Shown here: positions 30,925-51,823 of the stretch, in pieces | Layout of the letters: each line of letters starts with the position of its first letter | Position numbering within the stretch: the stretch's first letter is position 1 | Source: an uncultured Nitrospiraceae bacterium | GTDB lineage: Bacteria; Nitrospirota; Thermodesulfovibrionia; Thermodesulfovibrionales; UBA6898 | Length of the DNA: 64,000 nt | Direction of reading: 5' to 3' | Assembly (NCBI GenBank): GCA_963811165.1 | Contig: CAWEQH010000008.1 | Span: forward strand, 577,926 to 641,925 | Notes under the pieces: model-generated | The model's database searches: none | Seen by the model: only the letters and a program-made list of their open reading frames with translations | Told to the model about the DNA's origin: nothing | Made by a program: the position numbers and the translations under genes

Positions 30925-30952
30925 GAATCATCAGTTACAGAATCATCAGTTA

Positions 30953-32645: not shown

Positions 32646-32926
32646 TGGAGTTCCCGATCTCGGTGCGAAGCTTAAGAGAAGCTTTCGGAATGACATTGGA
32701 GAAAGCGGATATCAAGGATTTTCATTTTCACGATCTCAGACATACCTTTGCTACAAGGCTTGTTCAGAATGGTGTTGATCTTTATAAGGTCAAAGAACTG
32801 CTTGGTCATAAGACGATTGTCATGACCATGAGGTATGCACACCATTACCCTGAAAGTCTGAGATCAAGCATCGATATCCTTGATAATTGCTACAATTTTG
32901 CTACATTGAAGGTTCAAAGCGTTTGA
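32645..32926 (+). pseudogene. Tyrosine integrase C-terminal remnant
   Basis: FHDLRHTFATRL...ELLGHKTIVMTMRYAH; N-terminal part absent. Confidence 0.85.
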
Positions 32927-32959
32927 CCGGATGGGTAAAAATCATTTAATATCAAACAC

Positions 32960-33044
32960 GCGAGAGTGGCGGAACTGGCAGACGCGCTGGACTTAGGATC
33001 CAGTGGGGCAACCTGTAGGGGTTCAACTCCCCTCTCTCGCACCA
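32960..33044 (+). tRNA. tRNA-Leu (TAG)
   Basis: Cloverleaf with long variable arm, anticodon loop CTTAGGA, CCA end. Confidence 0.95.
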
Positions 33045-33284
33045 ACTCTTTGTTTCATAGGCTGTCAAAAAGATATTGCTTCAGTGACCTTGCCTGCATT
33101 ATATTGTCACAGCGCGAATAACTTCTTGGGGGGGAATCACACCTGCGGATTGAACGCCGAGGGTGCCGTAAGGTTCGGGGCCGCAATAAGGGATGAAAAG
33201 GAAAACTGTTCTAACCTCTTTGATAACCGCATCGATGGACCGACACATCCATAAAGGGAGTGCGCACATGTCCCAATGAGTAAA

Positions 33285-34340
33285 TTAAAGTGGGAAGATC
33301 ACTTCCATTCCCTTTCTCTCGTTTTCGTTGCAGGCGATCGCCGGCGAATTACCGGATGAAAGCATATCTAATAGCTGAAGGTGGAACCTCTTTTTGTTCC
33401 TCTTCTGTTCGTACATTGACCTATCTGCCTTTGCGATCAGATCATCAATGGAAGACTGACTCCCGGGCTCATAATGAGCGGCGCCGATGCTTATCGAAAG
33501 TGTGTAGGCGCGCTCAAATCTGAGATTGTGCAGTTGCAGTTTCTTTTGCAGGCGGTCGGTGTAGACGTCCAATTTTCCATAAGCGGGCTCGATCAGAAGA
33601 ACAACGAATTCATCTCCTCCTATGCGGGCGATTATATCAACGTCCCGAAAACTTTCCCGGAGGATTTCTGCCGTCCGGATAAGTGCCCGGTCCCCCTCCT
33701 GGTGACCGAATGTATCGTTGATCCTTTTTAAATCGTCCAGATCGGCGGAAAGCAACGACATCCCTTTTTCCATTCGAACTGCCATCTTTAGCTGCTGTCC
33801 GGCGAGGGCAAAAAAACCGCGTCGGTTGAAGAGGCCCGTAAGTTCATCGGTATTGGACAAACTGAGAAGTTTCTCTTCCGTCAGTTTAAGTTCGCTTATG
33901 TCCTTTGAGATCACGGTCACCGCCGTGATTCGCCGACGGGGCCCCATGACAGGACTTAACGTGCGAAGAAAATAGCTCCCGTCCCTAAGACTCCTGTGAA
34001 CGTGCTGCACGGACTTTCCCGTCAGGAGGACCTCGTTGACCTTCTCGATAAAATATCTTGTTTCCTCAGATGAATGGAACTTGCCGTATGACTGCCCCAT
34101 TACTTGTTCGCTCGGCAGGCCTAACCGTGACTGATGTTTGTTGTTCATGAAAAGATACCTGTATTTCCTGTCGACGAGATATATGGAATCATCCGTAGAT
34201 TCAACGAGCATACGGTATGTCTCATCGCTTTTTTGAAAAATCCTGGGGGCTTCTTCCGCTGCAGCGGCGTCCGACGCACCTCGGGGGGGACTTGCCGGGT
34301 CCTCGGTGAATCGCCTTCTTGTTCTTTTGCCTTCTTCCAT
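33285..34340 (-). CDS. PAS-GGDEF diguanylate cyclase
   Basis: DELTGLFNRR, INDTFGH, RDVD I-site and RIGGDEF. Confidence 0.92.
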   Translation of the reverse strand: MEEGKRTRRRFTEDPASPPRGASDAAAAEEAPRIFQKSDETYRMLVESTDDSIYLVDRKYRYLFMNNKHQSRLGLPSEQVMGQSYGKFHSSEETRYFIEKVNEVLLTGKSVQHVHRSLRDGSYFLRTLSPVMGPRRRITAVTVISKDISELKLTEEKLLSLSNTDELTGLFNRRGFFALAGQQLKMAVRMEKGMSLLSADLDDLKRINDTFGHQEGDRALIRTAEILRESFRDVDIIARIGGDEFVVLLIEPAYGKLDVYTDRLQKKLQLHNLRFERAYTLSISIGAAHYEPGSQSSIDDLIAKADRSMYEQKRNKKRFHLQLLDMLSSGNSPAIACNENERKGMEVIFPL

Positions 34341-34363
34341 AAAAATTGTTCTAAGTTTCACGA

Positions 34364-36403: not shown

Positions 36404-37561
36404 TCAGGTCTTCAGAAATTCCTGAAACTGTTTTTTTATCTCCAGGTGGTCTATCGGTATATTCGGGACGTCTTTGTTTCCCGGCAGTGCAAGCGCATGG
36501 ATGAACCTCAATCCTCTGCCGTGTTTCTTCATCACCTTGGTGAGCTCTGCTTTCGTCGAAACCTTGCAGGTATCTTTTATCCCGAAACCCCTTGCGACGG
36601 CCTCGAGGTCTACGCATGATCGGGTGAGCGTGGGCTGGTCCCCTGTCGAGCCGTACGAGCCGTTATCGATCACAAGGATCGTAAGGTTGGCCGGAGAGAA
36701 ATGGGCCGCCGTCGAAAGGGTGCCGGGGTTCATGAGCAGGCTCCCGTCACCGTCGATGACGACGACTTCTTTGGGCGTCGTCAAACTCACGCCCAGCCCT
36801 ATGGGCGTTGTCATGCCCATGCTGCCGAGCATATAAAAATTGGACGGTCGATGTCCGGCGGAATATAGCTCTTTTGAAGGAAATCCGAGGTTGCATACCA
36901 CCGCCTTTGCTTCGAGATAAGGCGCCGCCAGAGTAAGTATCTCAAAGCGGGTGTAGGATGGTTTTATCCCTGTCCTGCGCAAAGACGACCCTTCGGCGTC
37001 CTTCCCGGGCCCGGCCTGACAGCCCGGCGAGGGAAGCGGTCCGCATCCTGCGTATTCCCGTGCGGCCTCCGAATTCTCCCAGATCGCCGGGTTCATCAAA
37101 AAGGCGTGGACCTTGTTGTCCCGGTAAGATCCCGCGAGCTTCTTTTCGATCGTTCCGAAATCACCCTCTGCACCGATGAGAGAAAAACCGATCCCCGCAC
37201 CCTCCAGGATCGCCGGGAGCAGCTTGCCCATCGGGAATTGGGCCGCTATTTTTTCTTTGTAAATCCCGCGCTGGCTTACGAAGACCGCAAGAGGGAGCTC
37301 ATAGAATTGTGTGAGGGAAAGCAGGGCGTTGATCATATTTCCGATACCCGAACTCTGGATAAACATCGCCGGTCTTTTCCCGGACAATGCGGCGCCCGCA
37401 CATATGCCGACACCTTCCTCTTCGCGTGTCAGAGGGACATGGAAAGATGATCGTCCCACCATTTCGAGAAGGACCTTGATCTTCTCGCATGGCAGGGACG
37501 CCGTGAAATTGACCCCGGCCTCCGCGAGGATTCTCAGCAGCTCTTTTTCAGGGTTTCGCAT
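36404..37561 (-). CDS. comDE: Sulfopyruvate decarboxylase, fused alpha/beta subunits
   Basis: ASLPC...LTREEEGVGICAGA...QSSGIGN...SQRG (ComD) fused to NLGFPSKEL...NFYMLGSMG...DGDGS...DNGSYGSTGDQ (ComE, TPP motif). Confidence 0.88.
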   Translation of the reverse strand: MRNPEKELLRILAEAGVNFTASLPCEKIKVLLEMVGRSSFHVPLTREEEGVGICAGAALSGKRPAMFIQSSGIGNMINALLSLTQFYELPLAVFVSQRGIYKEKIAAQFPMGKLLPAILEGAGIGFSLIGAEGDFGTIEKKLAGSYRDNKVHAFLMNPAIWENSEAAREYAGCGPLPSPGCQAGPGKDAEGSSLRRTGIKPSYTRFEILTLAAPYLEAKAVVCNLGFPSKELYSAGHRPSNFYMLGSMGMTTPIGLGVSLTTPKEVVVIDGDGSLLMNPGTLSTAAHFSPANLTILVIDNGSYGSTGDQPTLTRSCVDLEAVARGFGIKDTCKVSTKAELTKVMKKHGRGLRFIHALALPGNKDVPNIPIDHLEIKKQFQEFLKT

Positions 37562-38790
37562 AAGGCCCCCTCTATCTCCGCGTCAGTGGCCTTCTTAGAG
37601 ACGAAGGTCGGCTCCACATTATAGGTTTTTTTCTCCTTGCCGAGCATGATCTCGCCGCCGCCGGTTATGTTCAGAAGTATCACGTCGTCCTTCCGGACAG
37701 TCTTGGCCTTCACTGCCTGCACCAGGGCGCCCACTGCCACTGCGGAGGCCGCCACTATGTCCACGCCCTCAAGGTTGCTGAAGAGTTCCATGGACTCAAA
37801 GACCTCGCGGTTGGTCACGCCGTACATCCTGCCTTTTGTGGCGGTGAGGGCGTCGAAGACGCCCCCCTGCACCGAATAGGCGGGATACCGAGTGGAGAGC
37901 ACGCGTGTCGATATCTGGGCTATCAGCTCCGGTCTGAGGTCCTCTTGGGCCAGTCCCCTGCTTCGCCGCTCCCATGCCCTCATCATCGGCGCAAAAGGAA
38001 GGTTCTGCGCAAGGTGAAGCTGGGGGAGGGAGCCGCCGAACTTGCCGTCGCCAAGCAGGCGCTCGGACATCTCCCACACGCCTATACCTCCGGTCCCGCT
38101 GCCCACCGCCTGGAAATAATGGTCAGGAAGTCTCCCTATGCGTGAGACGGACTCGAGCATTGTGGCGCCGAGGCCGTCTCTCTTGGCCACGTTCTTTACC
38201 CCGCCTTCAAACGGAAGGTCCGCAATCGCCGAGATACGGCGTGCCACGTCGATGGCATCGGAATAGTCGCCGTCACCGACCGCAAAGGTCGGTACCATCG
38301 ACGAGCTCTCAAGATACCACATCTCCATGAGGCACATCATGGGCACGACGATAATCACCGGGAAACCCGCGACCACCGAAAGATGGGCGAAGGCGCGGGC
38401 AGTATTTCCGGCTGAGGCAACCACCAGACCCTTGACCCCGTTTTCCAGTGCGTTTTGGAGCACGACTGCCGCCTCGAACTCCTTGAAGGTACAGGTCTGC
38501 AGGAACGCCCCCCGGTCGGGCCAGAAGCCGTTATAGGCGATGTAGAGGTGATCGAGCGCCAGGTGGCGCGCAAGCCACTGCGACTGATAGACGGCGGTGC
38601 AGGGCTGCTCGAACGTCGGCGTATGGACGGGAAGCCAGTTGAACTTCCAGATGCCCCGGCCGCAGTCGTCCCTGAAAGGCACTAAATATTGCGTAGTCAA
38701 AAGAGAATCTGTGCAGTGCTCGCAGAAGGCGCAGTATGTGTCCTTCAGTTCCTTGCCGCACTTGCTGCATCGAATGTGAAAATGACTCAT
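37534..38790 (-). CDS. Cysteate synthase (PLP, threonine-synthase-like)
   Basis: TCTFKEFEA, ASAGNTARAF, FEGGVKNVAKRDGLG, PDHYFQAVGSGTG, LNITGGG; adjacent to comDE. Confidence 0.85.
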   Translation of the reverse strand: MSHFHIRCSKCGKELKDTYCAFCEHCTDSLLTTQYLVPFRDDCGRGIWKFNWLPVHTPTFEQPCTAVYQSQWLARHLALDHLYIAYNGFWPDRGAFLQTCTFKEFEAAVVLQNALENGVKGLVVASAGNTARAFAHLSVVAGFPVIIVVPMMCLMEMWYLESSSMVPTFAVGDGDYSDAIDVARRISAIADLPFEGGVKNVAKRDGLGATMLESVSRIGRLPDHYFQAVGSGTGGIGVWEMSERLLGDGKFGGSLPQLHLAQNLPFAPMMRAWERRSRGLAQEDLRPELIAQISTRVLSTRYPAYSVQGGVFDALTATKGRMYGVTNREVFESMELFSNLEGVDIVAASAVAVGALVQAVKAKTVRKDDVILLNITGGGEIMLGKEKKTYNVEPTFVSKKATDAEIEGALCETLKKSC

Positions 38791-40037
38791 GCGCCCTCGC
38801 TTTCCACGACGTCCGCAAGGAGCTCCATGATGTCGGTGATCCTGATCTGGCGGTCGTATCCCTGCATCGCCTCGTTTACTTTCGCATAACATGCAGGACA
38901 GCTCAGTATTAGTCTGTCGGCGCCCTTGGCCGCCGCTTCGTCTATGGTGCGTCTGCCCATCGAAGCCGCATTTTCATGAAAGACCTTCCTTGCGGCCCCG
39001 CCTGCGCCGCAGCATCTCGATTCGAGCCGGTTCTTTGAGAACTCAAGAAGTTCGGCCCCCGGGATGCCCCTGAGGATGGCCCTGGGCTCCTCCATGATCC
39101 CGACGCCCCGGCTTAAATAGCAGGGGTCGTGGTAGATCAATCTTTCATGCAGCTTTTTCTTGATTACCAACTTCCCCCTTCTCATCGCATCTTCTACAAA
39201 CTGGGTAATATGTCTTATCTTAAAGGGCAGCTCAGCTCCGTAGAAGCCCGGCCAGTCCCTCGCCATGATATTGACGCAGCAGGGGCATGAACAGACGAGC
39301 ATCTTGACCCCTCTGTCTTTATATGTGTTCACCAGTCGTTTGACAAGGCCCTCAAGGAGGTCGTGCTGCCCGGTGATGAAGAGGGGAAAACCGCAGCAAA
39401 CCTCCTCCTCAGGCGGGAGCATCGTGAAGGGCTCTCCGATTGCCCCGAGCACGAGCACGTCGCCTTTGACCATAGGCGTCGCCTCGTACGCCCCGGTGCA
39501 TCCCGCATAGTAGGCGATATCGGCCCTCTCCGACACCTTCACCCGTTGGGGAAACCAGGGGGCAAACCTCTCTCCCGCGGGTTTATTGTACGGGTTCCCT
39601 GTCTGTGCAATCGCCTTCGGCAGTTCCGCCTGCGGTCCGACCGGTCCCAGCCCCCGCCTCACCATCTCCTTCCTGAGCATTGGCCAGAGCCGCTGTGTGA
39701 AGATGCCCACGGTGCAGTGCTGGCCGCAGGCCCCGCAGGTCGTGCATTCGAAGACGGCCTTTGTGAAGTCGTCGAGGAGCTTCCGGTCTATCTCCTTGGC
39801 GCCAAACAACCGTGCCTTCAGCCCCTCCGTGGCCTTTATGAATTCCCTGAAGATGCGTATCTTCTCAGGGGGCGAGATAAGGGAGTTCCCTGTTACGTCC
39901 TGGACAGGACAGTACTTCAGGCACTCTCCGCACTGCGTGCAGGCGTCAATCTCGATGAGCTGCAGGGGAGTCAGGCCCGAGGTAAAAGTTCCCCCCTGCG
40001 CTTCCTTCCGGATATCATTATCCTCATTATTTTCCAT
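38787..40037 (-). CDS. HdrD-like Fe-S oxidoreductase (2x[4Fe-4S] plus two CCG domains)
   Basis: CTQCGECLKYCP, CTTCGACGQHC, VCCG..SCPCC and YHDPC..CCGAGG..SCPAC motifs. Confidence 0.85.
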   Translation of the reverse strand: MENNEDNDIRKEAQGGTFTSGLTPLQLIEIDACTQCGECLKYCPVQDVTGNSLISPPEKIRIFREFIKATEGLKARLFGAKEIDRKLLDDFTKAVFECTTCGACGQHCTVGIFTQRLWPMLRKEMVRRGLGPVGPQAELPKAIAQTGNPYNKPAGERFAPWFPQRVKVSERADIAYYAGCTGAYEATPMVKGDVLVLGAIGEPFTMLPPEEEVCCGFPLFITGQHDLLEGLVKRLVNTYKDRGVKMLVCSCPCCVNIMARDWPGFYGAELPFKIRHITQFVEDAMRRGKLVIKKKLHERLIYHDPCYLSRGVGIMEEPRAILRGIPGAELLEFSKNRLESRCCGAGGAARKVFHENAASMGRRTIDEAAAKGADRLILSCPACYAKVNEAMQGYDRQIRITDIMELLADVVESEGA

Positions 40038-40710
40038 GCATCACCATGTCAAGTCCCTGTTGCCGTCTGCTTGCCTCTATAACGACAAGCGGCGCGGTAA
40101 AAATATGAAAGGGGAGATACGGGATCAAAAGAAGGGCGAGAGAAAAGTGGACGACGAAAAAAAAATTGCCCGGCAGCGGAGAGGGACTTAACGCGACAAT
40201 GCCCATTATAAAACTCTTTACGTCTATGAGGTCGGGTCTGAAGAAATTCCTCATCAGAAGTCCCGTAGCACCGATGGAAAAAAGGAGGCCCAGGATGACA
40301 TAGTTCTGATAGGAGACGTATCTCTTCCTGGCCGCCGCCCGTGCGACCATCACATAAGGCAATGAGAACGTGAGTATATATCCGGCCGCCACGCCGAAGG
40401 GCTGGACGCACCATATGCAGTCGGGCACGGGGTTTAAAAAATATCTGAGATGACGAAGGATGACAAAGAAGAATGAGGTATGAAAGGCCCAAGAGCCCAG
40501 CCACAGGACTTTATTGGATGCGAAAAGCCTTCTGAAAAAAAACAGGTCAAGTGCCGCGGTGCCGAACGCCGGGAACCGCTTTGCCTGGGGGGCAGGGTGA
40601 TGAGGCAGCAGGAGGCGCTCCGACTTTAACCAAAGGAGCGTATGCAGGCTGAGCCGCACCCAAAAGGCAGCATAAGCGAGATATGCGATTATGAACAGAA
40701 GTATTCCCAT
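40027..40710 (-). CDS. HdrE/NarI-like membrane cytochrome b subunit
   Basis: About five TM helices; heme-b His pattern WAFH...LRHLRY and VVHF...PFH. Confidence 0.75.
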   Translation of the reverse strand: MGILLFIIAYLAYAAFWVRLSLHTLLWLKSERLLLPHHPAPQAKRFPAFGTAALDLFFFRRLFASNKVLWLGSWAFHTSFFFVILRHLRYFLNPVPDCIWCVQPFGVAAGYILTFSLPYVMVARAAARKRYVSYQNYVILGLLFSIGATGLLMRNFFRPDLIDVKSFIMGIVALSPSPLPGNFFFVVHFSLALLLIPYLPFHIFTAPLVVIEASRRQQGLDMVMHGK

Positions 40711-40791
40711 TTCTCTATGATTATATTATCTCATAATAACGTATGTCAGAGTGCCGTCGGAACCCCGCAATCCCGAGTATTTCCAATTTGG

Positions 40792-41148
40792 TCACCCGTG
40801 CTTTTTATCCGTTTTGAGAGACTGCCGCTTTTCATCACGGATGAAGACGATAGATACGTCCTTTGGGACGCCGAGTCCGGCCTCGACTTCGAGCGCCTTT
40901 AAGACGGCACAGGGGACGGGACAGGCGACATGCCTGATGCATGCCGCCCCCTTCTTGTATACGGGATTTTCGAGCAGCTTCCTGAAGGCGTCCGCAAGTC
41001 GTAAGGGTAGGGAATTTCTTCCGCAAGCTTCATGGCCATGTCGCATGGCCGAGGTGATCCGTAGTTCAAGTACTCCTTATCCTTTTTCATCACCTCGATA
41101 ACTGACCGTCATGCCGCATTGCCCGGGATCTACCCTGACCTTGGTCAT
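40792..41148 (-). CDS. DUF6951-like small Cys protein, broken by several indels
   Basis: MTKVRVDPGQCGMT...IEV...PCDM..KLAEE...DAFRKLLENPVY...HVACPVPCAVLKALEVEAGL..PKDVSI across frames. Confidence 0.6.
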
Positions 41149-41154
41149 TGACTT

Positions 41155-43146
41155 TTATCCTTTTATGCCCGGGGCCAGAATCGACTTTTGTTCCTCAAGC
41201 ATCTTCTTTAGGTTCGGGAACTTGTCCTTCATGTGAGGGATATGCATCGCCTGCATGAACTCCTTCTCGAATGCAGGCTCGGTGGCGATCTCGACGAACT
41301 CGACCCAACGGGCGCGTTCGTCAGCCTCGATCCGTTTGGCTTTGTTCAGAAGCGCCATCCGTGCCCCGTCGCCCGCTGCGTTGCCGACGACCACCACCTT
41401 GTCGATGGGCACGTCAGGGAACATGCCGAGCATGAGCGACGCCTCGCGGTCGATATGACTGCCGAAGGCCCCGGCAAGCTCGACGCGGTCGAGCTTAGTG
41501 ACGCCCATCTTTTGCATCATCAGCTTTGCGCCGGTGTAAAGCGCACCCTTGGCGAGCTGCAGTGCCCGGACGTCGCCCTGGGTGACGGTGATGTCCTGGT
41601 TTATGGAGGTCTCCTCGGCCCAGGCAAGAACGTACTCAGGCTTCCCTCCCGCATCTTTCCTGATCCTGTTTGTGCCGGGGTCCATGACGAACTTTCCTGT
41701 TTTATCGATGACCCCTGCGAGGAACATCTCCGCGATGACATCTATGATCGCAGAGCCGCAGATGCCTTTTGCATTGATCTTCCCTTCTACGTGGGTATGC
41801 CAGTCTGCCTTGCCGATGACTTTATACCTGGGCTCCTTGGTCACGGGGTCTATCTTGACCTTCTCGATCGCCCCGGGAGCGGCACGCATGCCGAACTTTA
41901 TCTGCGCGCCCTCAAAGGCAGGGCCTGTTGCGCATGAGGTGGAACAGACCCTGTTCTTGTTGCCCAGGAGAAGCTCGCCGTTTGTGCCGATGTCTATAAT
42001 GAGGACCATGTCGTCCTGAAAATACTGTTCCTGGGCGATAAGCACGCCCACGTTGTCGGCGCCGACAAACCCCGCCTCTATCGGCAGGACATGTATGAAT
42101 GCGCCGGGGTTGATCTTCAGTCCCAGGTCGCGGGCCTTGATATCCATGGAGCGCTGCACCGCGGGGATGAAGGGAGAACGTCCGATGTAGACCGGGTTCA
42201 GCCCGAGGAATATATGGTGCATCGCGGTATTAAAGACTATGGTGAGGTCGTCGATCGCAACGCCCGGATGAGGGCCGTCCTTCCTCACTTCCGCAACCAC
42301 CTTTTCTATGATCTCGTTTAGTCCGGTGATGATCGCATCCTGCATCGTCTTTAGTCCTTCAGGGTTTGTCATGGCATAAGTAATCCTCGACATGACATCC
42401 TCGCCGTAGGGGACCTGCGGGTTCATCATCGATTCCGTGTTGATCACCTTTCCGGTTGAAAGGTCACAGAGATAGCCTACGCAGGTAGTGGTGCCGATGT
42501 CTACGGCAAGGCCGTAGCAGACATCCACATGCCCCGGTTCGACCTTGATTATCTCCCTGCCCTGCCAGACCGTTACGGTTATCGTCCATTCCCCTGTGCG
42601 CAGGGCATCCTGCAGCTGAAGGAGCACCTCGAAGTCGAACGTAAGGTCCTTGATGCCGTAGATTTCTTCCATGGCCTTGACGACCCGTTCGTAATCGCCC
42701 GTGGTCATCTCGTGCAGCGTAGGCGGGGTGAACGTAAGGGTATATTTCTTGACCGCCGGATCAAGTGCGATCGAAATTTCCTTTGCGGCCTTCCGCACCA
42801 CCTGTTTGCCGGCCCTCGACCGCTCCGGGACGAAGACCTTGAGGTCGCCATGTATCTCGCACGAGCAGGCGAGCCTGATGCCCGGTCCGTCTTCGGGCTT
42901 TATATGCTTCAGCTCATCAGGGGTCGGCTCGTGCGGCGTGATATGCTTCATACCGGACTCGAGATTGTCCTTTTCGAAGTAGCCCTCCTCGATCCTGACC
43001 TTGCATTTTCCGCAGACCTTCTTGTCTCCGCAGAGCGCCTCGAGGTCGACGCCGAGGCGCTGTGCGGCCTTCAGGATCGTTGTCCCTTCCTCTATCTCTC
43101 CACGCCGGCCTGCCGGTTGGAAGATCACCTTAAACATACGGCTCAT
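41155..43146 (-). CDS. Corrinoid reductive activator (RACo/RamA-type, 2Fe-2S plus ASKHA ATPase)
   Basis: CGDKKVCGKC..RLAC, DIGTT, YGEDVMSRI, DIGTNGE, GICGS and LAGAFG motifs. Confidence 0.92.
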   Translation of the reverse strand: MSRMFKVIFQPAGRRGEIEEGTTILKAAQRLGVDLEALCGDKKVCGKCKVRIEEGYFEKDNLESGMKHITPHEPTPDELKHIKPEDGPGIRLACSCEIHGDLKVFVPERSRAGKQVVRKAAKEISIALDPAVKKYTLTFTPPTLHEMTTGDYERVVKAMEEIYGIKDLTFDFEVLLQLQDALRTGEWTITVTVWQGREIIKVEPGHVDVCYGLAVDIGTTTCVGYLCDLSTGKVINTESMMNPQVPYGEDVMSRITYAMTNPEGLKTMQDAIITGLNEIIEKVVAEVRKDGPHPGVAIDDLTIVFNTAMHHIFLGLNPVYIGRSPFIPAVQRSMDIKARDLGLKINPGAFIHVLPIEAGFVGADNVGVLIAQEQYFQDDMVLIIDIGTNGELLLGNKNRVCSTSCATGPAFEGAQIKFGMRAAPGAIEKVKIDPVTKEPRYKVIGKADWHTHVEGKINAKGICGSAIIDVIAEMFLAGVIDKTGKFVMDPGTNRIRKDAGGKPEYVLAWAEETSINQDITVTQGDVRALQLAKGALYTGAKLMMQKMGVTKLDRVELAGAFGSHIDREASLMLGMFPDVPIDKVVVVGNAAGDGARMALLNKAKRIEADERARWVEFVEIATEPAFEKEFMQAMHIPHMKDKFPNLKKMLEEQKSILAPGIKG

Positions 43147-43170
43147 ATATATTTGTCCTCCTTGATTACA

Positions 43171-43809
43171 TTATTTCTTTGTTCCATTTCGCGAGTAGGG
43201 ACAGACGGTCACGCAGAACCCGCAATTGGGTTTTTCCTTAAGGGAGGTCCTCCCCGACTTCAGTGTCCTGCATTTATCGTATGCGACGATCTCCCTCAGG
43301 GGGTTGCCGAGCGTCCAGAGGTGGCCTTTCACTGCGCCCGAGGGACAGTGCTTTACGCAGAGATCGCATTCGCCGCATTGCGACGCTACATAAGGCCGGT
43401 CAGCGCCCAACGGGGCATCGGTCAGCACCGTTGCCCAGGTCATCTTCGACCCGTACCGCTCGTTGATGATCAGACCGTTCTTCCCAATCCATCCAAGACC
43501 GGAGCAGGTCGCCGCGGTCTTGTGGCAGAAGAGCTTGTACAGTTTCGAGATCATCTTGCCCATCTTCCGGTCCGAGTCCGGCGGGATAGAAAGGCTCCGG
43601 TATCCGTTTGCCTTAAGCCATCCCTCGGCCAGGGCCTGGAGGCGGATGAGCAGATCAACGGTTTCCCTGGTGAGGCTCCGGTTTACCGCGATGGCAACAC
43701 CTCTGCTGAGGTGGACGATCTCCTTTGAGAGTGCCTCCGTGACATCGCCCACTCCGACGAGAGTCGCGCCCTCGGACTTCAGAAACTGCTTCAGCGGGTC
43801 AGCATTCAC
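43171..43809 (-). CDS. QueG/epoxyqueuosine-reductase-like 4Fe-4S protein (short form)
   Basis: HKTAATCSGLGWIGKNGL, VLTDAPL, CGECDLCVKHCP and CGFCVTVCP motifs. Confidence 0.78.
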   Translation of the reverse strand: MNADPLKQFLKSEGATLVGVGDVTEALSKEIVHLSRGVAIAVNRSLTRETVDLLIRLQALAEGWLKANGYRSLSIPPDSDRKMGKMISKLYKLFCHKTAATCSGLGWIGKNGLIINERYGSKMTWATVLTDAPLGADRPYVASQCGECDLCVKHCPSGAVKGHLWTLGNPLREIVAYDKCRTLKSGRTSLKEKPNCGFCVTVCPYSRNGTKK

Positions 43810-43816
43810 CGGCTGC

Positions 43817-44500
43817 CTATTTCTTCATCTTTTCGTCCCTGAGTTTTTTCAGGAACGCGACCATCTTGATTGCTTCTTTGAGTGCATTGCTGGCGTCTTC
43901 GGCATACCCGTCGGCGCCCCATTTGTCAGCGAGTTCCTTGGATGTCGGGGCCCCGCCGATCATGATCATGCAGTCGGGGTTCTTTTCCTTGATCTTCTCT
44001 ATGACCTTCGGCATGCCGACCATCGAGGTGGTCATCATCGCAGAAAGACAGACGAGTTCCGAATCGGTCTTGAGCTGTTCGTCGACGAATTTGTCGAGTG
44101 GCACGTCCCTGCCCAAGTCGTAGACCGTAAACCCTGCGACATCGAACATCATCTTCACAAGGTTTTTGCCGATGTCGTGGACGTCTCCTTCGACCGTGCC
44201 GATAACCACGGAGCCCTTCACCCCCAGGTCCATCTGCTGGCAGTGGGGTTTGAGGATCTCAAGTCCCGCGTAAAGCGCATCGGCGCACATCAAAATCTCC
44301 GGGACGAAATATTCCTGGGCCTCAAAGAGCCTGCCGACTTCTTCCATCCCGGAGACGAGGCCGTCGAAGATCGCCTCGTTCGCGTCGAGCCCCTCCGCCA
44401 CCGCTTCATTGGCGCCTTCTCTGCATGCGTCCTCGTCGTACTGGATAACGCCGTTTCTCAGTTTCTCGTAGATCTCTTTTTTCCGTGCTTCGTCAGCCAT
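43817..44500 (-). CDS. Methyltransferase corrinoid protein (MtaC/MtbC family)
   Basis: EYFVPE, GTVEGDVHDIGKNLV (DxHxxG), SAMMTT and MIGGAP motifs. Confidence 0.95.
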   Translation of the reverse strand: MADEARKKEIYEKLRNGVIQYDEDACREGANEAVAEGLDANEAIFDGLVSGMEEVGRLFEAQEYFVPEILMCADALYAGLEILKPHCQQMDLGVKGSVVIGTVEGDVHDIGKNLVKMMFDVAGFTVYDLGRDVPLDKFVDEQLKTDSELVCLSAMMTTSMVGMPKVIEKIKEKNPDCMIMIGGAPTSKELADKWGADGYAEDASNALKEAIKMVAFLKKLRDEKMKK

Positions 44501-45525
44501 TATTGTTTACCTCCATACGTTTTTATTTCTTCCATCATTGCGGTCATGTTCCGGGGCGGCACTGTCGGCCAGATGTCGCAGCCCGGCCAGACCGCGCTGA
44601 CGCCGTCGTCGATACACTTGCGCATCGTGGTGCGAACGAGCTCTTCGCTGCCCGATACGAGGACGTTATACGGATCGAAGTTGCCGAAGATGAGCGCATC
44701 GCTTCCCAATTTCTTCCTCGACTCTGAAACGTCGTTCTTCTGCTCGACGCTGATTGCGGTAGGCCCGGCCTCCATCATGGTGGTGACGATATCGTTCGTC
44801 TTTCCGCAAATATGGAGCACGGAGTGGACCGATACCGCCTTGAACACCTTTTGAAGCGGGGGCATGATAAGGTTTTTGAAAACCCGGGGGCTCAGAACGT
44901 CGCTTGTGGCACCCATCTCTCTGACGGTGATATAGTCGGCGCCCGCCTTCTCATACTCTTTTGCGACGATGATAATGGCGTCCGCCGCAACGTCAAGCAG
45001 TTTAGCCACCTTGTCGGCCTTCTTGAACGAGAGCTTCAACAGGTCGTTCAACTCCATTATCTGGCCGGCGAGGGTGAACGGCCCGAGGACATACGAGCCT
45101 ACTGCAACGTCGTTGCCGATATCGGCCTTCAGCAGTCTTATCGCCTCTCTTAACAGGGGGACCCTGCCCCGGGAGCCGAGGTCCGCCGGCAGCGAGATGT
45201 TCATCTCGTCCTCGTTGTGGATCAGTTTTTTCTTAATGGTCGGGTAGAGTATGCCTTCCGCATGAGGATAGACATTGATCTCACAGCCCATCGCCTCTGC
45301 CTCGACACAGAGGTCTACAGGCACGACCCCGCACTCGTAGCCAAAAAGTTTAAAGGTCGAGGCTGCGGTCTCCGCCATCTGTTTGGCGTCCAGGTGGATA
45401 CCCGCAAAACGGTAGCCCAGTTTGGTGATGCCGGTTTCGGTTATGTTGCCCATGCCGCTAAAGCAAGGCACCCTGTCGATCGCCTCCCTCTTAAACAGCT
45501 TCAAGACTCTCTCTCGTGAATTCAT
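44500..45525 (-). CDS. MtaA/CmuA-family methylcobamide:CoM-type methyltransferase (UroD fold)
   Basis: DLCVEAEAMG, LGPFTLA, zinc ligands LHICG and PGCD. Confidence 0.88.
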   Translation of the reverse strand: MNSRERVLKLFKREAIDRVPCFSGMGNITETGITKLGYRFAGIHLDAKQMAETAASTFKLFGYECGVVPVDLCVEAEAMGCEINVYPHAEGILYPTIKKKLIHNEDEMNISLPADLGSRGRVPLLREAIRLLKADIGNDVAVGSYVLGPFTLAGQIMELNDLLKLSFKKADKVAKLLDVAADAIIIVAKEYEKAGADYITVREMGATSDVLSPRVFKNLIMPPLQKVFKAVSVHSVLHICGKTNDIVTTMMEAGPTAISVEQKNDVSESRKKLGSDALIFGNFDPYNVLVSGSEELVRTTMRKCIDDGVSAVWPGCDIWPTVPPRNMTAMMEEIKTYGGKQ

Positions 45526-45558
45526 GAACGGTAATTCTCCTTTCAGTATCTTGTATCT

Positions 45559-46524
45559 TTAATTCCCTGATTTCCCTTTTTTCCTTGCGCCGCCCTCCTG
45601 GATCTTGGTGATGAAGTCGCCGAAATATTTCCTCAGCGGCAGTTCGGGGTTGTCGAAGATGACGCCGGTCTCATCGAAGACGAGCGTCGAAAGAAGCATG
45701 TGCGCGCTTGCGACCGCGGGGAAAACCCTCGGCGCGGTAACGGCGGGACCGCAGAAGTTAAAGTCCGACCAAAGGGCCGAGGACATGCCCTGTACCACGG
45801 CGTCCATCGCCTTAAAGCCCTCCAGACCCCACGTCTGCTTTATCTCCTTCCACATATGCGTCCCGTTTGAGTATGCCCCGCCACAGGGGAGCCCGTGTTT
45901 TTCCTTTATCATCCTGTTGGCGACGAGCGAAAATGACGTAGACGGCAGGTTCATGACCGAGGTGTCTACGATAATCGTGGAAAAGCCGTCTGCGCCCTGG
46001 GCCAGGATCGACTCCAGGGATTTCACCCTTCCGGCCGGTGTCTGGTCCTGATCGTCAAACGCCTGTATCACTACATGCCTGATCCCGAGGTCCTTCAGCC
46101 TCTGGATCTGGCCTTTTATGTCTTTGTCCCAGGGGGTAATGCTGTTATACAGAAATTTGTGCTGCACCCCCAGCTTAGCCACATATTCGGTGGCCTTCGC
46201 CCTCTGTTCAGCCACCCACATATCGATGCCAAAAGGCATGTCCGTCGTATCGAGGAAAAAGTCTATATAGATCTTGGCCTCTTCCGGAGAATTGGCGACC
46301 ATCGCGACCATGCCGGGAACGCCGGTCACTTTGGTGAGTTCCTCTTGTTTCCGTATGATCTCTACTGCCCGCTCCCGATCGAAGTTTCCCTTTCGGTCCT
46401 GGACGATCTTGTCCTTGTTATGGAACATCGAGGAGATCATCAGCGGAGGATTTTCGCCCGGCTGGCCGCCGACCTTTATGCCATTTAATTCAAAAACCTT
46501 CTGCTCCTTCTGAAATCTGAACAT
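45559..46524 (-). CDS. MtrH/MtgA-like pterin:corrinoid methyltransferase
   Basis: MFRFQKEQKVFELNGIKVGGQPGENP, FGID, YNSI and IVDTSV match the MtrH family. Confidence 0.85.
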   Translation of the reverse strand: MFRFQKEQKVFELNGIKVGGQPGENPPLMISSMFHNKDKIVQDRKGNFDRERAVEIIRKQEELTKVTGVPGMVAMVANSPEEAKIYIDFFLDTTDMPFGIDMWVAEQRAKATEYVAKLGVQHKFLYNSITPWDKDIKGQIQRLKDLGIRHVVIQAFDDQDQTPAGRVKSLESILAQGADGFSTIIVDTSVMNLPSTSFSLVANRMIKEKHGLPCGGAYSNGTHMWKEIKQTWGLEGFKAMDAVVQGMSSALWSDFNFCGPAVTAPRVFPAVASAHMLLSTLVFDETGVIFDNPELPLRKYFGDFITKIQEGGARKKGKSGN

Positions 46525-46572
46525 CTGCTCTCCTTTTCAGGGAATTATTATGATAAAATGGCTTTTTTTAGT

Positions 46573-46663
46573 GTCGGTGTCGGTGGGGGTGTCAGTCATG
46601 AAGGCGTAATAAATATTTTCAGTTTCCATTCTGTTCTTACCGGCACACACCACCGACACCGAC
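46573..46663. repeat. Intergenic inverted repeat with GTCGGT iterations
   Basis: GTCGGTGTCGGTGG (46573-46586) and CCACCGACACCGAC (46650-46663). Confidence 0.7.
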
Positions 46664-46675
46664 CTTAAGGATTCT

Positions 46676-47122
46676 CTAAAATACTCCGTGGTCGAACTTC
46701 GGCTGGGGCAAGTACTCCCACTTTTCGCCCTTTCTGTATTTCGCCTCGATGTCGAGGCACTTGAGGGCGTATTCAAATGCATAGGGAATACCCGGACCGC
46801 CGGGGACGAAGCCGGCGAGGATCATGCCGACCGATGCGGCCTCAAAGATCTCACCCGTGGTTGCGCCTGCGTTTATTGCGGGGATCACGTGGATGATGCA
46901 GCGCGGCGAGCAGTATCCAACACCGCCCGACATGAACATCAGTTCCTTTACCTTACGGGACAGCGCGCCGTCACCGAAGATGCTGGCATAAAAGTCTGCA
47001 AAGGTCCTCCCCGGCTCAGGGGTGACTGTGTTGATGATCTGGAACATCCTCGGTACGAAACCGCACTGTTTCTTCATGTACTCGTTGACTTCTTCTGTGG
47101 TCATCTTCTTCTGATCTGCCAT
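46676..47122 (-). CDS. Carboxymuconolactone decarboxylase/AhpD-family protein
   Basis: GFVPRMF, GALSRKVKELM, CSPRCIIH, AGAT..EIFEA; RBS GGAGG before 47122, alternative start at 47194. Confidence 0.82.
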   Translation of the reverse strand: MADQKKMTTEEVNEYMKKQCGFVPRMFQIINTVTPEPGRTFADFYASIFGDGALSRKVKELMFMSGGVGYCSPRCIIHVIPAINAGATTGEIFEAASVGMILAGFVPGGPGIPYAFEYALKCLDIEAKYRKGEKWEYLPQPKFDHGVF

Positions 47123-47280
47123 CTTTGTCTCCTCCCTAACATTTTTTTCCGGCCCTAGGGCCAGAAGTTGCTTGATAAAATCAAACAATCCCACTCTTGC
47201 CTCCCCTTTTTAACGGGTTTATATGCCTTGCCTCGGCGTGAAAAGCACCTCACCTCCCTTCGCAAAGACGCGGTGATTCC

Positions 47281-48324
47281 TTAGTACTTCCAGTTAAATG
47301 CGGCGTCGTGGAACGCCTTCAGGTTTTCATATGGTATGGTCGGCGGGATGTCGCAGCCCGGTACGAGCACGTACCCGCCGTCTTTCCCCGCAATCCCGAT
47401 CACTTCCTTGCAGGCGGCCTCGACCTCGGACGCGGTCTTGTTCAGAAGCACATGAACCGGGGCGACATTTCCCCCGAAACACATCTTGCCGAAGAGGACC
47501 TCTTTGGCCCTGGCGATATCCACCTTCTGGTCGAAGAAGATGACGCTGCAGCCCGTATCGATAAATTGATCGAGCCGGTCGCCTGTGTTGCCGCATATAT
47601 GAAGGATGGTATGTACGTTCTTCGATTTTGCCCAGTCACTCATCTTCTTAAGCGGCGGGACTGCGAACTTGGCCATCTGTTTGGGGTTAATGAGGTCCCC
47701 TGATGCGGTGGGGTCGGCTATGCTCAGACACTCGAGTGAGCCTTCGGCAACGAGCGGTTCATAAAGGCGGATGAGCAGGTCTGCGCAGAAATTCACCATC
47801 TTCTCGACGAACGCCGGTTTTTTGAATGTGAACTTCATGAAGTCCTCTTCCCCTACAAACCTGGCAGCGAGGGTGAAGGGGCCCCAACAGGTCATGGTGA
47901 CCAGATATTTTTTCCCTATTTTCTGATGGACGAGCCGCGTGGCCTCCATGACGTTTTTGACGACAGGGTCCTTATGAACATCGTCGAGGCTGAGCTTGTC
48001 GATATCCTCTTCGGACTTGACGAAGTGCAGGGTGAGGTCCGGCGCGCCTATCTCACGGTATTTTATCCCTGCGCCGAAGGCGGTGCCGAGGGCAGATGCG
48101 TGGAAGTTGTTGTATCCCGAACCCACATAGATTACATCGCTTCTGATCCTCTCCGCCTCCGTGATGCACATGTCGGCCATCTTGGCCGCATCCTTGCCCA
48201 ACTCCTCAAATGTCGACCCGTAGTCCTTGATGCTCCACATACCGCCGCCGAAGAGTGTCACCGGGACCCGCTCTGGTTTTCCCCCTTCAAAGGCCTTGCG
48301 TATTATGTCTCTTGGTTCCATCAC
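47281..48324 (-). CDS. Second MtaA/UroD-family methyltransferase
   Basis: WGPFTLA, IADPTASGDLI, LHICG, GNVAP and PGCDIPP motifs. Confidence 0.88.
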   Translation of the reverse strand: MMEPRDIIRKAFEGGKPERVPVTLFGGGMWSIKDYGSTFEELGKDAAKMADMCITEAERIRSDVIYVGSGYNNFHASALGTAFGAGIKYREIGAPDLTLHFVKSEEDIDKLSLDDVHKDPVVKNVMEATRLVHQKIGKKYLVTMTCWGPFTLAARFVGEEDFMKFTFKKPAFVEKMVNFCADLLIRLYEPLVAEGSLECLSIADPTASGDLINPKQMAKFAVPPLKKMSDWAKSKNVHTILHICGNTGDRLDQFIDTGCSVIFFDQKVDIARAKEVLFGKMCFGGNVAPVHVLLNKTASEVEAACKEVIGIAGKDGGYVLVPGCDIPPTIPYENLKAFHDAAFNWKY

Positions 48325-48342
48325 TTCCCCCTTCTCATGAAT

Positions 48343-48687
48343 TTAATGTATGCTGTGCATTCTGCTCAGACAATGGACCGTCCTCTTAAACTGTTCGAGA
48401 TCAATGGGTGCTTCGACGCTCAGGACATCTGTCTCAAACGTATCATATCCGACGAATATTACGACTATCTCCGGCAGTATGGTCTTGATTATCTTTATCG
48501 CGTCCTGGACCGGGAGGCCGAACGGTTCCGAGTCGATGACGAGAGAGGCATATTTTTTTTTAAGCGACATCTGCACCGCAATGGAAGGATGGTCTGCAGT
48601 GTCGACGCAGCAGCCTTCATCCCTCAGAATTGCATAAAGGCTTTTAAGGAGAATCGGGTTATTCGAACAGAGCAGCGTTTCTGTCAT
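48343..48687 (-). CDS. Stand-alone receiver-like protein
   Basis: CheY-like alpha/beta pattern (LVIDSE, VIFVG, EAPID). Start moved to 48687 because the upstream ATG lies inside the promoter. Confidence 0.6.
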   Translation of the reverse strand: MTETLLCSNNPILLKSLYAILRDEGCCVDTADHPSIAVQMSLKKKYASLVIDSEPFGLPVQDAIKIIKTILPEIVVIFVGYDTFETDVLSVEAPIDLEQFKRTVHCLSRMHSIH

Positions 48688-48703
48688 AAGTGTAGGTGAA
48701 GAA

Positions 48704-48719
48704 AGCAAGTAAGATGCCA
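48704..48719 (-). promoter_or_regulatory. Sigma54 (-24/-12) promoter of the methyltransferase/CoM operon
   Basis: TGGCATCTTACTTGCT; inverted UAS-like pair GAGTA..CCCCA / TGGGG..TACTC at 48781-48820. Confidence 0.72.
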
Positions 48720-48911: not shown

Positions 48912-49430
48912 TTATGATTTCCTAATATCGATAGTCCCCGCTACCGGGGTCGGCTTTACCAGGCTGTCCACCACGGGGCAGTGTGCTATTACCCTTTCGG
49001 CAAGTTCCCTGACCTTGTCCTCGTCATCGGGGGATTCGATCGTGAAGTGGTAGGTAAGGCCCTTAAAGCCCGCTTGAACGCCATCGACCATGAAAAGGCC
49101 CCTCAGATCAAGTGCCCCCTCTATCTCGGCTGAAATTGAATTTACGGTAAGGCCCTCATAAAGGGCAAATTCATAGAACGCACTCTCGATGCATGCTGCA
49201 AATGAGGCCAGAAGAAGTTCAACCGGGTTTGGGGCCTGGTTGTCGCCGCCGGCGGGCACGGGATAATCCGCCTTGACCAGATGGTTCCGCACCTTCGTTT
49301 CCGTGTAGAGGCCTTTTACGTGACGTGACGATACCCTGGGTGAGTAGATGGCAGTCTCCGGTTTTTTCCCGAAGAGATCGATTCTCTTCGCAACGATTTC
49401 TTTCAAATCATGTTCATCTGTTTTTTTCAT
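48912..49430 (-). CDS. OsmC/Ohr-family protein
   Basis: GGDNQAPNPVELLLASFAAC...HCPVVDSL. Confidence 0.9.
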   Translation of the reverse strand: MKKTDEHDLKEIVAKRIDLFGKKPETAIYSPRVSSRHVKGLYTETKVRNHLVKADYPVPAGGDNQAPNPVELLLASFAACIESAFYEFALYEGLTVNSISAEIEGALDLRGLFMVDGVQAGFKGLTYHFTIESPDDEDKVRELAERVIAHCPVVDSLVKPTPVAGTIDIRKS

Positions 49431-50485: not shown

Positions 50486-51823
50486 TCAATCGATACCGTA
50501 TTTTTTGAGCTTCAGATAGAGCGTCTTTCTGTCGATGCCGAGGGTCTGGCTTGCCTTGGACTGGTTGCCGTTTGCCTCCTTAAGTACCCTCAGGATGTAG
50601 TCTTTTTCTATTTCTTCCAGTGACGGGTTTGCGCTCAATTCCCTATGCGGCTGCACGGAGATAGAGAGGTCCTCATTATCTATCTTTTCAGCGTCGCAGA
50701 GGATGACGGCGCGTTCGACGACGTTTTCGAGCTCCCTTACATTTCCGGGCCATGGGTATCTGGTGAGGGTCTCCATAGCGCCGGGTGTAAAGCCCTCTAT
50801 CTGTTTCGACATCTTCCGGCTATACTTCATGAGGAAGTTGGCTGCGAGTCCCGGGATATCGTCAGTCCGTTCCCTAAGGGGAGGGATAGTAATGTTAATC
50901 ACGTTCAGCCGGTAATACAAGTCCTCCCTGAAGCCGCCTTTTCTCACAAGTTCGATCAACTCCTTGTTCGTTGCGGCGATAAGCCTGACGTCGACCCTGA
51001 GTGTCTTGTTGCTCCCCACCCTCCTGAATTCCCCCGAATCGAGGAACCGCAGAAGTTTCGCCTGGGGCCCAAGAGGCATTTCTCCTATTTCATCAAGAAA
51101 GAGAGTGCCCTTATCGGCCACTTCGACAATCCCGTGCTTTGTCTGATAGGCGTTTGTGAAGGCGCCTTTTTCATGGCCGAATATCTCGGACTCAATGAGG
51201 TTTTCCGAAAGCGCAGCACAGTTCAGGGCGATGAAAGGGAATTCGCCCCGTTTGCTGTATTGCCATAGAGTATTGGCGACAAGTTCCTTGCCGGTGCCGC
51301 TTTCTCCCTGAATGAAGACCGGCGAGTCGGTAGGGGCGATCTTTCTCATCAGCGCGAGGATGTCTTTCATCTGCCTGCTGGCGCATATGAACTCGGGCGG
51401 CGTCTCTTTCCTGACAAGCTCTTGCTGCAGGAGACGGCTCTTTATACTCAGTCTTCCATATTCGTAGGCCCTGTGAATAATGATTACAAGCTCGTCCAGT
51501 TTGTAGGGCTTCGTAAGGTAATCATAGGCCCCGTGCTTCATGGCCTCGACTGCCGTCTCTACTGTCGCCCGACCGGTCAGGACGATGATGGCGGGCGAGG
51601 CGGGGTCTGTCCGGAGTTTTTTCATTAACGAAATGCCGTCGATGCCGGGCATGATGATGTCCAGGAGGAGGATGTCGAAGGTGCGTTCTTTCAGGATTTC
51701 CAGGGCGGCCTTCCCATCGGGTGCGACCTCTACGGAGAACCCTTTCCTTGCAAGCTCTTTCTTAAGAAGCCTCCTCAGGGGCTCTTCGTCGTCAACTACA
51801 AGTACTCGTATTGTCTCTTGCAT
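50486..51823 (-). CDS. Sigma54-dependent response regulator (NtrC family)
   Basis: REC domain, GESGTGKE, GAFTNA, LFLDEIGE, WPGNVREL and Fis-type HTH. Confidence 0.95.
   Translation of the reverse strand: MQETIRVLVVDDEEPLRRLLKKELARKGFSVEVAPDGKAALEILKERTFDILLLDIIMPGIDGISLMKKLRTDPASPAIIVLTGRATVETAVEAMKHGAYDYLTKPYKLDELVIIIHRAYEYGRLSIKSRLLQQELVRKETPPEFICASRQMKDILALMRKIAPTDSPVFIQGESGTGKELVANTLWQYSKRGEFPFIALNCAALSENLIESEIFGHEKGAFTNAYQTKHGIVEVADKGTLFLDEIGEMPLGPQAKLLRFLDSGEFRRVGSNKTLRVDVRLIAATNKELIELVRKGGFREDLYYRLNVINITIPPLRERTDDIPGLAANFLMKYSRKMSKQIEGFTPGAMETLTRYPWPGNVRELENVVERAVILCDAEKIDNEDLSISVQPHRELSANPSLEEIEKDYILRVLKEANGNQSKASQTLGIDRKTLYLKLKKYGID

Follow-up and report, generated by a model that had tools for sequence, protein, structure and literature searches.

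We studied a stretch of 64,000 nucleotides (hereafter the window; assembly GCA_963811165.1, contig CAWEQH010000008.1, positions 577,926 to 641,925) from an uncultured bacterium of the Nitrospiraceae. Its minus strand carries, from about 48690 to 36404, 13 co-oriented genes, 12 of them intact, in which cysteate synthase together with the sulfopyruvate decarboxylase ComDE, two enzymes of the archaeal route to coenzyme M (CoM), are joined to MtaA-like zinc methyltransferases, an MtrH-like methyltransferase, a corrinoid protein and a redox pair formed by a membrane cytochrome and a CCG protein. This is a real, lineage-wide operon of known parts in an undescribed combination. Judging from the enzyme families encoded, these bacteria probably make CoM or a very close thiol-sulfonate. 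The complete scheme that we favour, with slightly less than an even chance of being right, is that CoM made by the archaeal phosphoserine route would act as a thiol hub through which methyl-sulfur compounds give up their methyl groups to tetrahydrofolate (H4folate), with no MCR. The first-pass annotation of this DNA had given the order and orientation of the genes correctly; it counted twelve genes and named thirteen, of which one is frameshifted, and its "often overlapping" applies to 4 of the 12 junctions, as counted from the starts of the open reading frame (ORF) finder.

Conservation and co-inheritance of the operon

The window belongs to a Thermodesulfovibrionales genome assembly of 10 contigs that is 95% complete (G000; codes of this type denote our genomes, contigs, C, and loci, L). 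The closest match of its cysteate synthase (91%) was also from Thermodesulfovibrionales, and the Ca. Sulfobium copy was 85% identical. Loci around the operon were surveyed in GTDB genomes (the best 80 of 114 matches), and the denominators for each gene are those of the 80 loci long enough to show it. The gene order was conserved far beyond chance: the CCG protein was present in 71/74 loci, the corrinoid activase RACo in 52/55, the corrinoid protein in 49/52, the methyltransferase MtaA-1 and the MtrH-like protein each in 46/48, and ComDE in 77/80. In three loci the operon was split (L049, L068 and L031), with the other half elsewhere in the genome. The best 120 matches to the MtaA-1 protein were 77-92% identical, and those with names were nearly all from Nitrospirota; a cluster look-up with 10 queries named one cysteate synthase from Methanomassiliicoccus.

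Co-inheritance was followed in 61 relatives, all Thermodesulfovibrionales genomes, with and without cysteate synthase. The cysteate synthase gene (cs) was found in 38 of them (37 over the family cut-off plus one broken copy). The CCG protein followed it exactly, being present in those 38 and in 0/23 others. For MtaA-1, orthologues of 66% identity or more were found in 36/38 and 0/23; the two misses were genomes 83% and 66% complete. In a phylum sample of 301 Nitrospirota genomes, where cs was counted at E 1e-60 or better, 58 genomes had it (55 over the cut-off), about a fifth. Besides Thermodesulfovibrionales, they came from three other families in its class and from a single family (37/64) in a different class. 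The genes co-occur across Nitrospirota, and the first-pass annotation would have counted a failure to co-occur elsewhere as a refutation.

Several genes were found inserted in the operon among the 80 loci. In 13 of them the insert was folD, in 11 an additional NarI-like gene, in 8 a gene for a chemoreceptor and in 2 an ATP-binding cassette (ABC) importer of the SsuA type. The folD insertions point to methyl-H4folate, in line with the first-pass proposal that the methyl groups feed into this pool. The SsuA importer, over the TIGR01728 cut-off, was inserted in L031 and L063 and also in L122. It does not replace ComDE in L031, as we had considered, since comDE lies about 18 kb further along the same contig. 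In one genome (G062) the main operon was present twice, both times with an SsuA importer.

Eight operon-bearing genomes, chosen for holding a paralogue of MtaA-1, presented a satellite cluster (L113-L115 and L117-L121) with genes for a PAS kinase, a LuxR regulator, the MtaA-1 paralogue (48-51% identity), CobW, a CbbQ/vWA pair, DUF2284, an MtaA-like protein, a corrinoid protein and RACo, and no folate methylase in view. This paralogue was found in 6/38 cs-bearing relatives and 0/23 of the others. The presence of the cluster in genomes that carry the operon fits CoM as a shared carrier. In a further locus of G062 (L116, contig C9), fhs, acsE, two metF copies and genes for an aldehyde dehydrogenase and for RnfC/PduS-like proteins accompanied several MtaA-like genes, possibly a microcompartment-type cluster for one-carbon compounds.

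Cysteate synthase, ComDE and the last step of coenzyme M synthesis

Families were assigned with the curated NCBIfam/TIGR/PRK cut-offs and Pfam scans. The pyridoxal phosphate enzyme at 37534..38790 (start 38790) scored 442 on the cysteate synthase model TIGR03844 (cut-off 325), its Lys103 was invariant in 77/77 sequences, and a FastTree tree separated it from the four threonine synthase (ThrC) rows used as outgroup with support 100. It is a cysteate synthase rather than a threonine synthase. The adjacent thiamine diphosphate enzyme at 36404..37561 is a fused ComDE: it exceeded the ComD model TIGR03845 (173 against 148), fell about 2 bits under the ComE model TIGR03846 (219.4 against 221.5) and stayed far below the phosphonopyruvate decarboxylase model TIGR03297 (193 against 312.5). 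It was 42-44% identical to ComDE copies encoded beside MMP16. Both identities agree with those proposed at first pass.

To our knowledge, MMP16/COG1900 is the only known family of ComF, the last enzyme of CoM synthesis. Its domain (PF01837) was found in 0/61 genomes in a search where three controls matched, so that the ComF that the first-pass annotation wanted sought in the rest of the genome did not appear; that annotation had noted neither this absence of any known CoM synthase nor the unlinked protein described below. An aminotransferase, also to be sought according to it, was found, as the host carries ten of class I/II, together with serA. The missing ComF is no bar to CoM synthesis, because Methanoperedens, as listed in S1 Table of PMC12068725, has cs in 21/21 and comDE in 20/21 genomes, and MMP16 and COG1900 in 0/21. 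According to the same source, sulfide rescues the loss of MMP16 in M. acetivorans, whose CoM importer is SsuA/C.

A conserved SsuA/Thi5-fold partner protein

A protein of about 305 residues with the SsuA/NMT1 fold and without signal peptide (hereafter the partner) was encoded downstream of comDE in 14/80 Nitrospirota loci. In the host genome it is unlinked to the operon (G000:C7:21920-22798, equal to L102:6921-7799), with its C-terminus frameshifted in the assembly. It was present in 37/38 cs-positive and 2/23 cs-negative relatives and, among the 301 Nitrospirota, in 57/58 genomes with cs and 5/243 others, the single miss being a 74% complete genome. A metagenome sample of 80 loci around other cysteate synthases, biased because the query that picked its rows belonged to the partner-linked group, showed the partner in 17 loci, MMP16 in 17 others, both in 0 and neither in 46. 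Fourteen of the 17 partner-bearing loci were not part of the Nitrospirota-like clade, and in most of these fourteen the three genes shared a strand in the order cs-comDE-partner. The partner gene adjoined cs-comDE in archaeal loci, and the cs-comDE-SsuA-fold set was also found in an MCR-type methanogen locus (L190). The named relatives of the partner were from Njordarchaeota, Promethearchaeota and Hydrothermarchaeales, with one Methanoperedens and many Methanoregula. In FastTree trees, with the same sampling bias, cysteate synthase and ComDE of Nitrospirota grouped with those of partner-linked archaeal loci and apart from the MMP16-linked ones (support 86 and 99, respectively).

Residues Cys74, His79, Glu81, His121, Asp147, Ser192, His216, Cys257, His300, His305 and Tyr306 of the partner were invariant in 240/240 homologues. 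The first motif lay at most 30 residues from the N-terminus in 186 of the 240 and was unmatched in 54, and the partner had no N-terminal extension when compared with true SsuA rows; its TIGR01728 score was 74, below the cut-off of 163.5. The AlphaFold model (pLDDT, predicted local distance difference test, 92.8) matched TauA and SsuA best, with the enzyme Thi5 nearly equal (TM, template modelling, scores 0.76-0.81; 13-17% identity). This fold suits sulfonate binding and has enzymatic precedent. As regards the hallmarks of an ABC binding protein, the partner lacked a signal peptide and no permease lay beside it in G000.

The partner very probably acts in CoM metabolism. That it is itself a CoM synthase is a tentative alternative, which we regard as somewhat doubtful. 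No redox cofactor that could serve a reductive thiolation is obvious in it, and sulfide chemistry alone can give CoM (PMC12068725); both limit the case for a synthase role. The synthase reading is also limited by PMC4683180, which lists "ComDEF" for Methanoperedens. Among the 24 Methanoregula in S1 Table of PMC12068725, 11 have cs, and of these 5 have MMP16 and 6 lack it, all six with another COG1900 protein.

A PNPOx-like flavin-binding gene was convergent after the cs-comDE-partner block in seven loci (cluster k5: L135, L136, L137, L156, L172, L187 and one more), and nitroreductase genes adjoined the partner gene in 4 Nitrospirota loci. These proteins are possible electron donors for thiolation.

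Methyl-transfer genes

MtaA-1 (44500..45525) belonged to the broad methylcobalamin:CoM methyltransferase subfamily PRK06252 (254, cut-off 244) and matched the M. mazei MtaA structure 4AY7 at E 6e-49, with the zinc set His238-x-Cys240...Cys316 kept in 46/46. MtaA-2 (47281..48324), a zinc methyltransferase of the UroD superfamily, matched 4AY7 at E 9e-29, and its set was His242-x-Cys244...Cys324, with His/Cys kept in 15/15. A His-Cys-Cys zinc set is described as the mark of S/Se-methyltransferases (PMC10418091). The zinc sites and the broad subfamily of MtaA-1 agree with the label MtaA proposed at first pass; the cut-offs of the narrower models do not (see below). These two proteins and UroD were the only PF01208 members in G000, and MttB and MtaB were not found in the host genome.

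The MtrH-like protein (45559..46524), of the MtrH/MtgA family, exceeded the PRK00979 family cut-off (333 against 287) and fell below those of mtrH (165 against 271) and MtgA (165 against 550). The two methyltransferases and MtrH were conserved at 60-95% identity across loci. Next to MtaA-1 lies a monomeric corrinoid (B12) protein (43817..44500; PF02310, PF02607) that scored 203 on TIGR02370, under the cut-off of 215. It is followed by a QueG/RdhA-like double [4Fe-4S] protein (43171..43809; PF13484), with cluster Cys kept in 48-49/50, and by a RACo-type ATP-dependent reductive activase of corrinoid proteins (41155..43146; PF14574, PF17651, PF17650, PF00111), to which the former is possibly the electron donor. 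AcsV-like RACo copies lie elsewhere in the host genome.

The host carries Wood-Ljungdahl genes, for which the first-pass annotation had advised a search, acsABCDE (with an AcsE-like gene within), metF, fhs and folD, and also dsr genes, including a separate dsrMK in the dsr locus (G000:C8:231900-244999, L103), where several genes are frameshifted and dsrA is in pieces. Both acsB (57/61 relatives) and dsrA (58/61) occur throughout the group, irrespective of whether the operon is present. The gene mcrA (PF02249) was not found in G000, where the search was made, in agreement with the earlier proposal of a system without MCR.

Redox pair and AhpD-like protein

The membrane b-type cytochrome (40027..40710) is NarI/DsrM/HdrE-like; His77, His87, His188 and His202 were invariant in 58/58, and it scored 75 on DsrM, under the cut-off of 300. 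The HdrD-like CCG protein (38787..40037; PF02754 twice) has two [4Fe-4S] cubane motifs and two complete CCG motifs, all motif Cys being invariant in 68/68. Its best match in PDB was 9ojn, and HdrB chains matched only at E 7e-6. The HdrDE label given at first pass thus describes a likeness in architecture (cubanes, CCG motifs and a haem-b partner) for which no family model reached its cut-off (see below); both "MtaA" and "HdrDE" are to be read here as likenesses rather than as demonstrated family membership. Of the second copies of the CCG gene described below, the one in L129 has a type III sulfide:quinone reductase-like gene and NifS nearby.

The AhpD/CMD-like protein (46676..47119, probable start 47119; PF02627) had Cys99, His102 and Cys146 (ORF numbering) invariant in 35 sequences, with no fixed CxxC, and belonged to the Atlas CMD clusters (0.97). 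A second copy, 91.5% identical (G000:C4:471171-471629, equal to L101:9172-9630), is flanked by genes for a selenium-associated LysR regulator (Se-LysR), a rhodanese and YedF.

Proposed scheme and alternatives

In the favoured scheme, cysteate synthase, whose family membership is clear, would form cysteate from phosphoserine and sulfite; a housekeeping aminotransferase would give sulfopyruvate; and ComDE, nearly as well placed in its family, would yield sulfoacetaldehyde. Thiolation to CoM might then occur by or with the unlinked cytoplasmic partner, or by sulfide chemistry. MtaA-2 would demethylate a methyl-sulfur compound (e.g., methanethiol or dimethyl sulfide, DMS) onto the RACo-activated corrinoid protein, MtaA-1 would exchange the methyl group between corrinoid and CoM, and the MtrH-like enzyme would transfer it to H4folate, to be oxidised or assimilated via MetF, FolD, Fhs and ACS/CODH. 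The methyl halides proposed at first pass as substrates found no specific support. Moving a methyl group from a thioether to a pterin costs roughly 30 kJ/mol, and the potential of CoM disulfides is well below that of menaquinone. For these reasons the CCG/haem-b pair, which may couple CoM thiol/disulfide to the quinone pool, would more plausibly oxidise the freed thiol and so pull the transfer. That CoM is the product, what MtaA-1 and MtaA-2 do, which substrate is used and in which direction the methyl group moves are all inferences.

Several results weigh against this scheme. The counts given above overstate the support and are descriptive only, because related genomes are not independent samples. 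The COG1900 family was found in none of the 61 relatives (see above). MtaA-1 scored 240 on the MtaA equivalog, whose cut-off is 400, and two loops near its active site differ from those of M. mazei MtaA (CFSGMGN for CSVTQTG and REM for ADP), so that its acceptor may not be CoM; MtaA-2 exceeded no cut-off (TIGR01463 182 against 235, PRK06252 168 against 244). The CCG protein was over no NCBIfam cut-off, and on TfrB it scored 184, hardly more than a paralogue of the same genome (182) that is not related to it in function or locus. Second CCG copies (75-76% identity) lay apart from the operon in L129 and L130, with MMPL transporters. A route from corrinoid to folate does not strictly need CoM. 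Finally, in three archaeal loci (L135, L137 and L174) cs-comDE was accompanied by AhpD-like, DUF6951, CCG/NarI and thioredoxin-like genes, whereas MtaA was not in view. This speaks for a redox role of the module and keeps such a reading as the main rival; it also suggests that the methyl module may have been added in Nitrospirota.

According to this rival, which we consider rather unlikely, CoM would be mainly a redox thiol or electron shuttle whose disulfides are cycled by the CCG/haem pair and the AhpD-like protein, and the methyltransferases would rescue S-methyl-CoM or scavenge methyl groups into folate. Besides the archaeal loci, OsmC and MsrA among the neighbours of the operon and the antioxidant role of CoM in M. 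acetivorans (PMC12713407) are consistent with it. The sigma54 promoter with a dedicated sensor pair (see below) and the inserted folD and chemoreceptor genes resemble instead the catabolism of a substrate, and the high conservation of the two methyltransferases and MtrH also argues against it. A sulfonate product other than CoM (e.g., taurine, isethionate, sulfoacetate or another thiol-sulfonate), with MtaA-like enzymes that use sulfide, selenide or another thiol as in type 1 mlp clusters, seems unlikely. It would agree with the lack of COG1900, the divergent loops of MtaA-1, the second AhpD-like copy among selenium genes and the methylation of selenide by ClMlp2 (PMC10418091); against it stand the strict co-inheritance that ties the sulfonate genes to methyltransferases of the thiol type and to a CCG protein of the disulfide type, the cs-comDE-SsuA-fold set in the methanogen locus L190, and the relatives of the partner in Methanoregula and Methanoperedens. 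Xsc was below the cut-off in the host search, so that sulfonate breakdown, which we had considered through this enzyme, is not indicated.

The operon might also run in reverse, with methyl-H4folate from the Wood-Ljungdahl pathway passing its methyl group via corrinoid and CoM to sulfide and giving methanethiol or DMS as a sink for methyl groups or sulfide. Folate-to-thiol methyl transfer is the downhill direction, as known from Mtr energetics, most hosts have acsB and dsrA, and sequence does not fix the direction; such a soluble system would, on the other side, waste energy, and uptake is suggested by the importer and chemoreceptor genes found within the operon, so we regard this reading as quite improbable. 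We give hardly any credence to the idea that the operon methyltransferases replace methionine synthase. The MetH domain PF02574 was found in 0/61 and PF01717 (MetE) in 2/61 genomes; the same gap occurs in most operon-free genomes, and G000 encodes a separate 334-residue MesB-like protein (C8:257743-258747), assigned only by its motifs His-x-Cys and P-x-C-G, which weaken this role further. The MesB core methionine synthase family is described in PMC7857596.

Relation to known systems

The type 2 CoM pathway of Methanosarcinales and Methanomicrobiales (cs MA3297, comDE MA3298, MMP16/ComF MA3299; PMC12068725, PMC12713407) shares with the operon adjacent cs and fused comDE genes, an aminotransferase supplied elsewhere and, in some loci, an SsuA-type importer. 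The operon differs in its bacterial host, where neither mcrA nor COG1900 was detected (see above). The CoM pathway of alkene oxidisers (XcbA-E, PMC9457059) also makes CoM in a bacterium, but with different enzymes, by a phosphoenolpyruvate route that serves epoxide carboxylation in aerobes; as far as these sources (PMC9457059, PMC12713407) go, bacterial CoM is in print only from such organisms.

With the soluble MtaA/MtbA/MtsA systems the operon shares a monomeric corrinoid protein, an activase that depends on ATP and the UroD-fold zinc site His-x-Cys...Cys. Its proteins, however, do not reach the equivalog cut-offs of MtaA and MtbA and differ in the loops of the active site, its activase is of the RACo type instead of Ram, neither MtaB nor MttB was found as a first enzyme, and an MtrH-like folate methylase takes the place of MCR. 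The b-type cytochrome with four His and the protein with two cubane and two CCG motifs resemble HdrDE of Methanosarcina and Methanoperedens and also DsrMK, but no curated cut-off was exceeded by the pair, and the dsrMK of the host is separate. Type 1 mlp clusters (Kountz and Balskus, PMC10418091) likewise have at least two MtaA-like genes, a corrinoid protein and an activase, co-oriented, with His-Cys-Cys sites. They are defined there by having no folate methylase within 20 kb, whereas the operon has an MtrH-family gene, and adds the CoM-precursor and CCG/haem genes; the satellite cluster of eight genomes fits the mlp definition better. The main text of that paper contains no mention of Nitrospir-, cysteate or MtrH.

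The mec cassette of dichloromethane fermenters (bioRxiv 2021.08.30.458270) and cdmBCA (PMC13222342) are similar to the operon in combining MtaA/CmuA-type and MtrH-type proteins, a corrinoid protein, an activase and a two-component regulator for transfer to H4folate. In the text available from both, compared for the ten-gene mec set by description only, the gene content differs, CoM synthesis and CCG/haem genes are not mentioned, and CdmB is zinc-free. The operon, for its part, has no cation transporter. In a study of MecE/MecB/MecC, CoM is said to have served as acceptor in vitro.

We found no description of the operon or of the partner in the literature searched, which left most subscription journals uncovered; supplementary lists (PMC10418091, mec preprint) may hold Nitrospirota entries. 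Roughly one in five of the sampled Nitrospirota (58/301) carries the archaeal route wired to thiol methyltransferases, and bacterial CoM made by this route would surprise specialists. If the favoured scheme is true, common sulfate reducers of sediments, groundwater and soils would use a methanogen cofactor without methanogenesis, methanethiol and DMS may be substrates for which they and methanogens compete, and the com and mta genes would mark methanogens poorly. What completes CoM synthesis in organisms without MMP16, such as Methanoperedens, becomes testable through the partner. The joint proposal that Nitrospirota have an MCR-free CoM route oxidising methyl-sulfur compounds via the Wood-Ljungdahl pathway, and that these bacteria, archaea without MCR (Hydrothermarchaeales and Asgard lineages) and Methanoperedens have in the partner a second CoM synthase, not homologous to the first, is at present rather doubtful.

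Promoter, first gene and neighbouring genes

A sigma54 (-24/-12) motif, TGGCA-N6-TTGC, is located at 48703..48719 of the minus strand. By itself it is weak (2 such motifs in the window against 0.53 per shuffle), and the form TGGC-N7-TTGC recurred at the matching place in 8/15 related loci checked, while several of the other 7 begin at or inside the first gene; the sigma54 promoter of the first-pass annotation is to that extent upheld. Since the motif overlaps the ATG chosen by the ORF finder at 48720, the first gene probably starts at 48687. This gene (48343..48687) encodes a small conserved protein of about 114 residues, whose homologues (35-59% identity) lead the operon in 10 loci; the earlier designation "receiver-like" was backed by no Pfam or NCBIfam match. 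The one broken gene of the operon, DUF6951 (about 40790..41148), was recognised as frameshifted by a three-frame reading and by DNA alignment with L001 and L012, where the copy is intact (107 residues); an intact relative matches PF22263 at E 1e-30. As dsrA and the C-terminus of another gene are also broken in the same genome, the frameshift is likely a sequencing or assembly indel.

Upstream of the operon, also on the minus strand, lie a loosely linked OsmC-like gene (48912..49430; PF02566), with 63-72% identical counterparts in L071/L127 and L122-L123 that lie immediately upstream of the operon, and genes for a sigma54-dependent response regulator and a GAF/PAS histidine kinase (50486..54299), identified by hidden Markov model scans, with 55-72% identical orthologues near the operon in L058, L123 and L126. 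This regulator and kinase likely activate the operon promoter.

A protein of about 200 residues, acidic and with no Pfam match, was encoded convergent on comDE in 26/80 loci (e.g., L058:12391-13011); in the host its gene lies near that of the partner (G000:C7:26174-26743). The second sigma54 motif of the window (34379, minus strand) is upstream of a PAS-GGDEF gene (33285-34361). Finally, the region 30200-33200, with a GC content of 43-45%, lower than its surroundings, holds genes for a CGGC-domain protein and an acyltransferase-like protein as well as a fragment of an integrase, and is possibly the remnant of an insertion.

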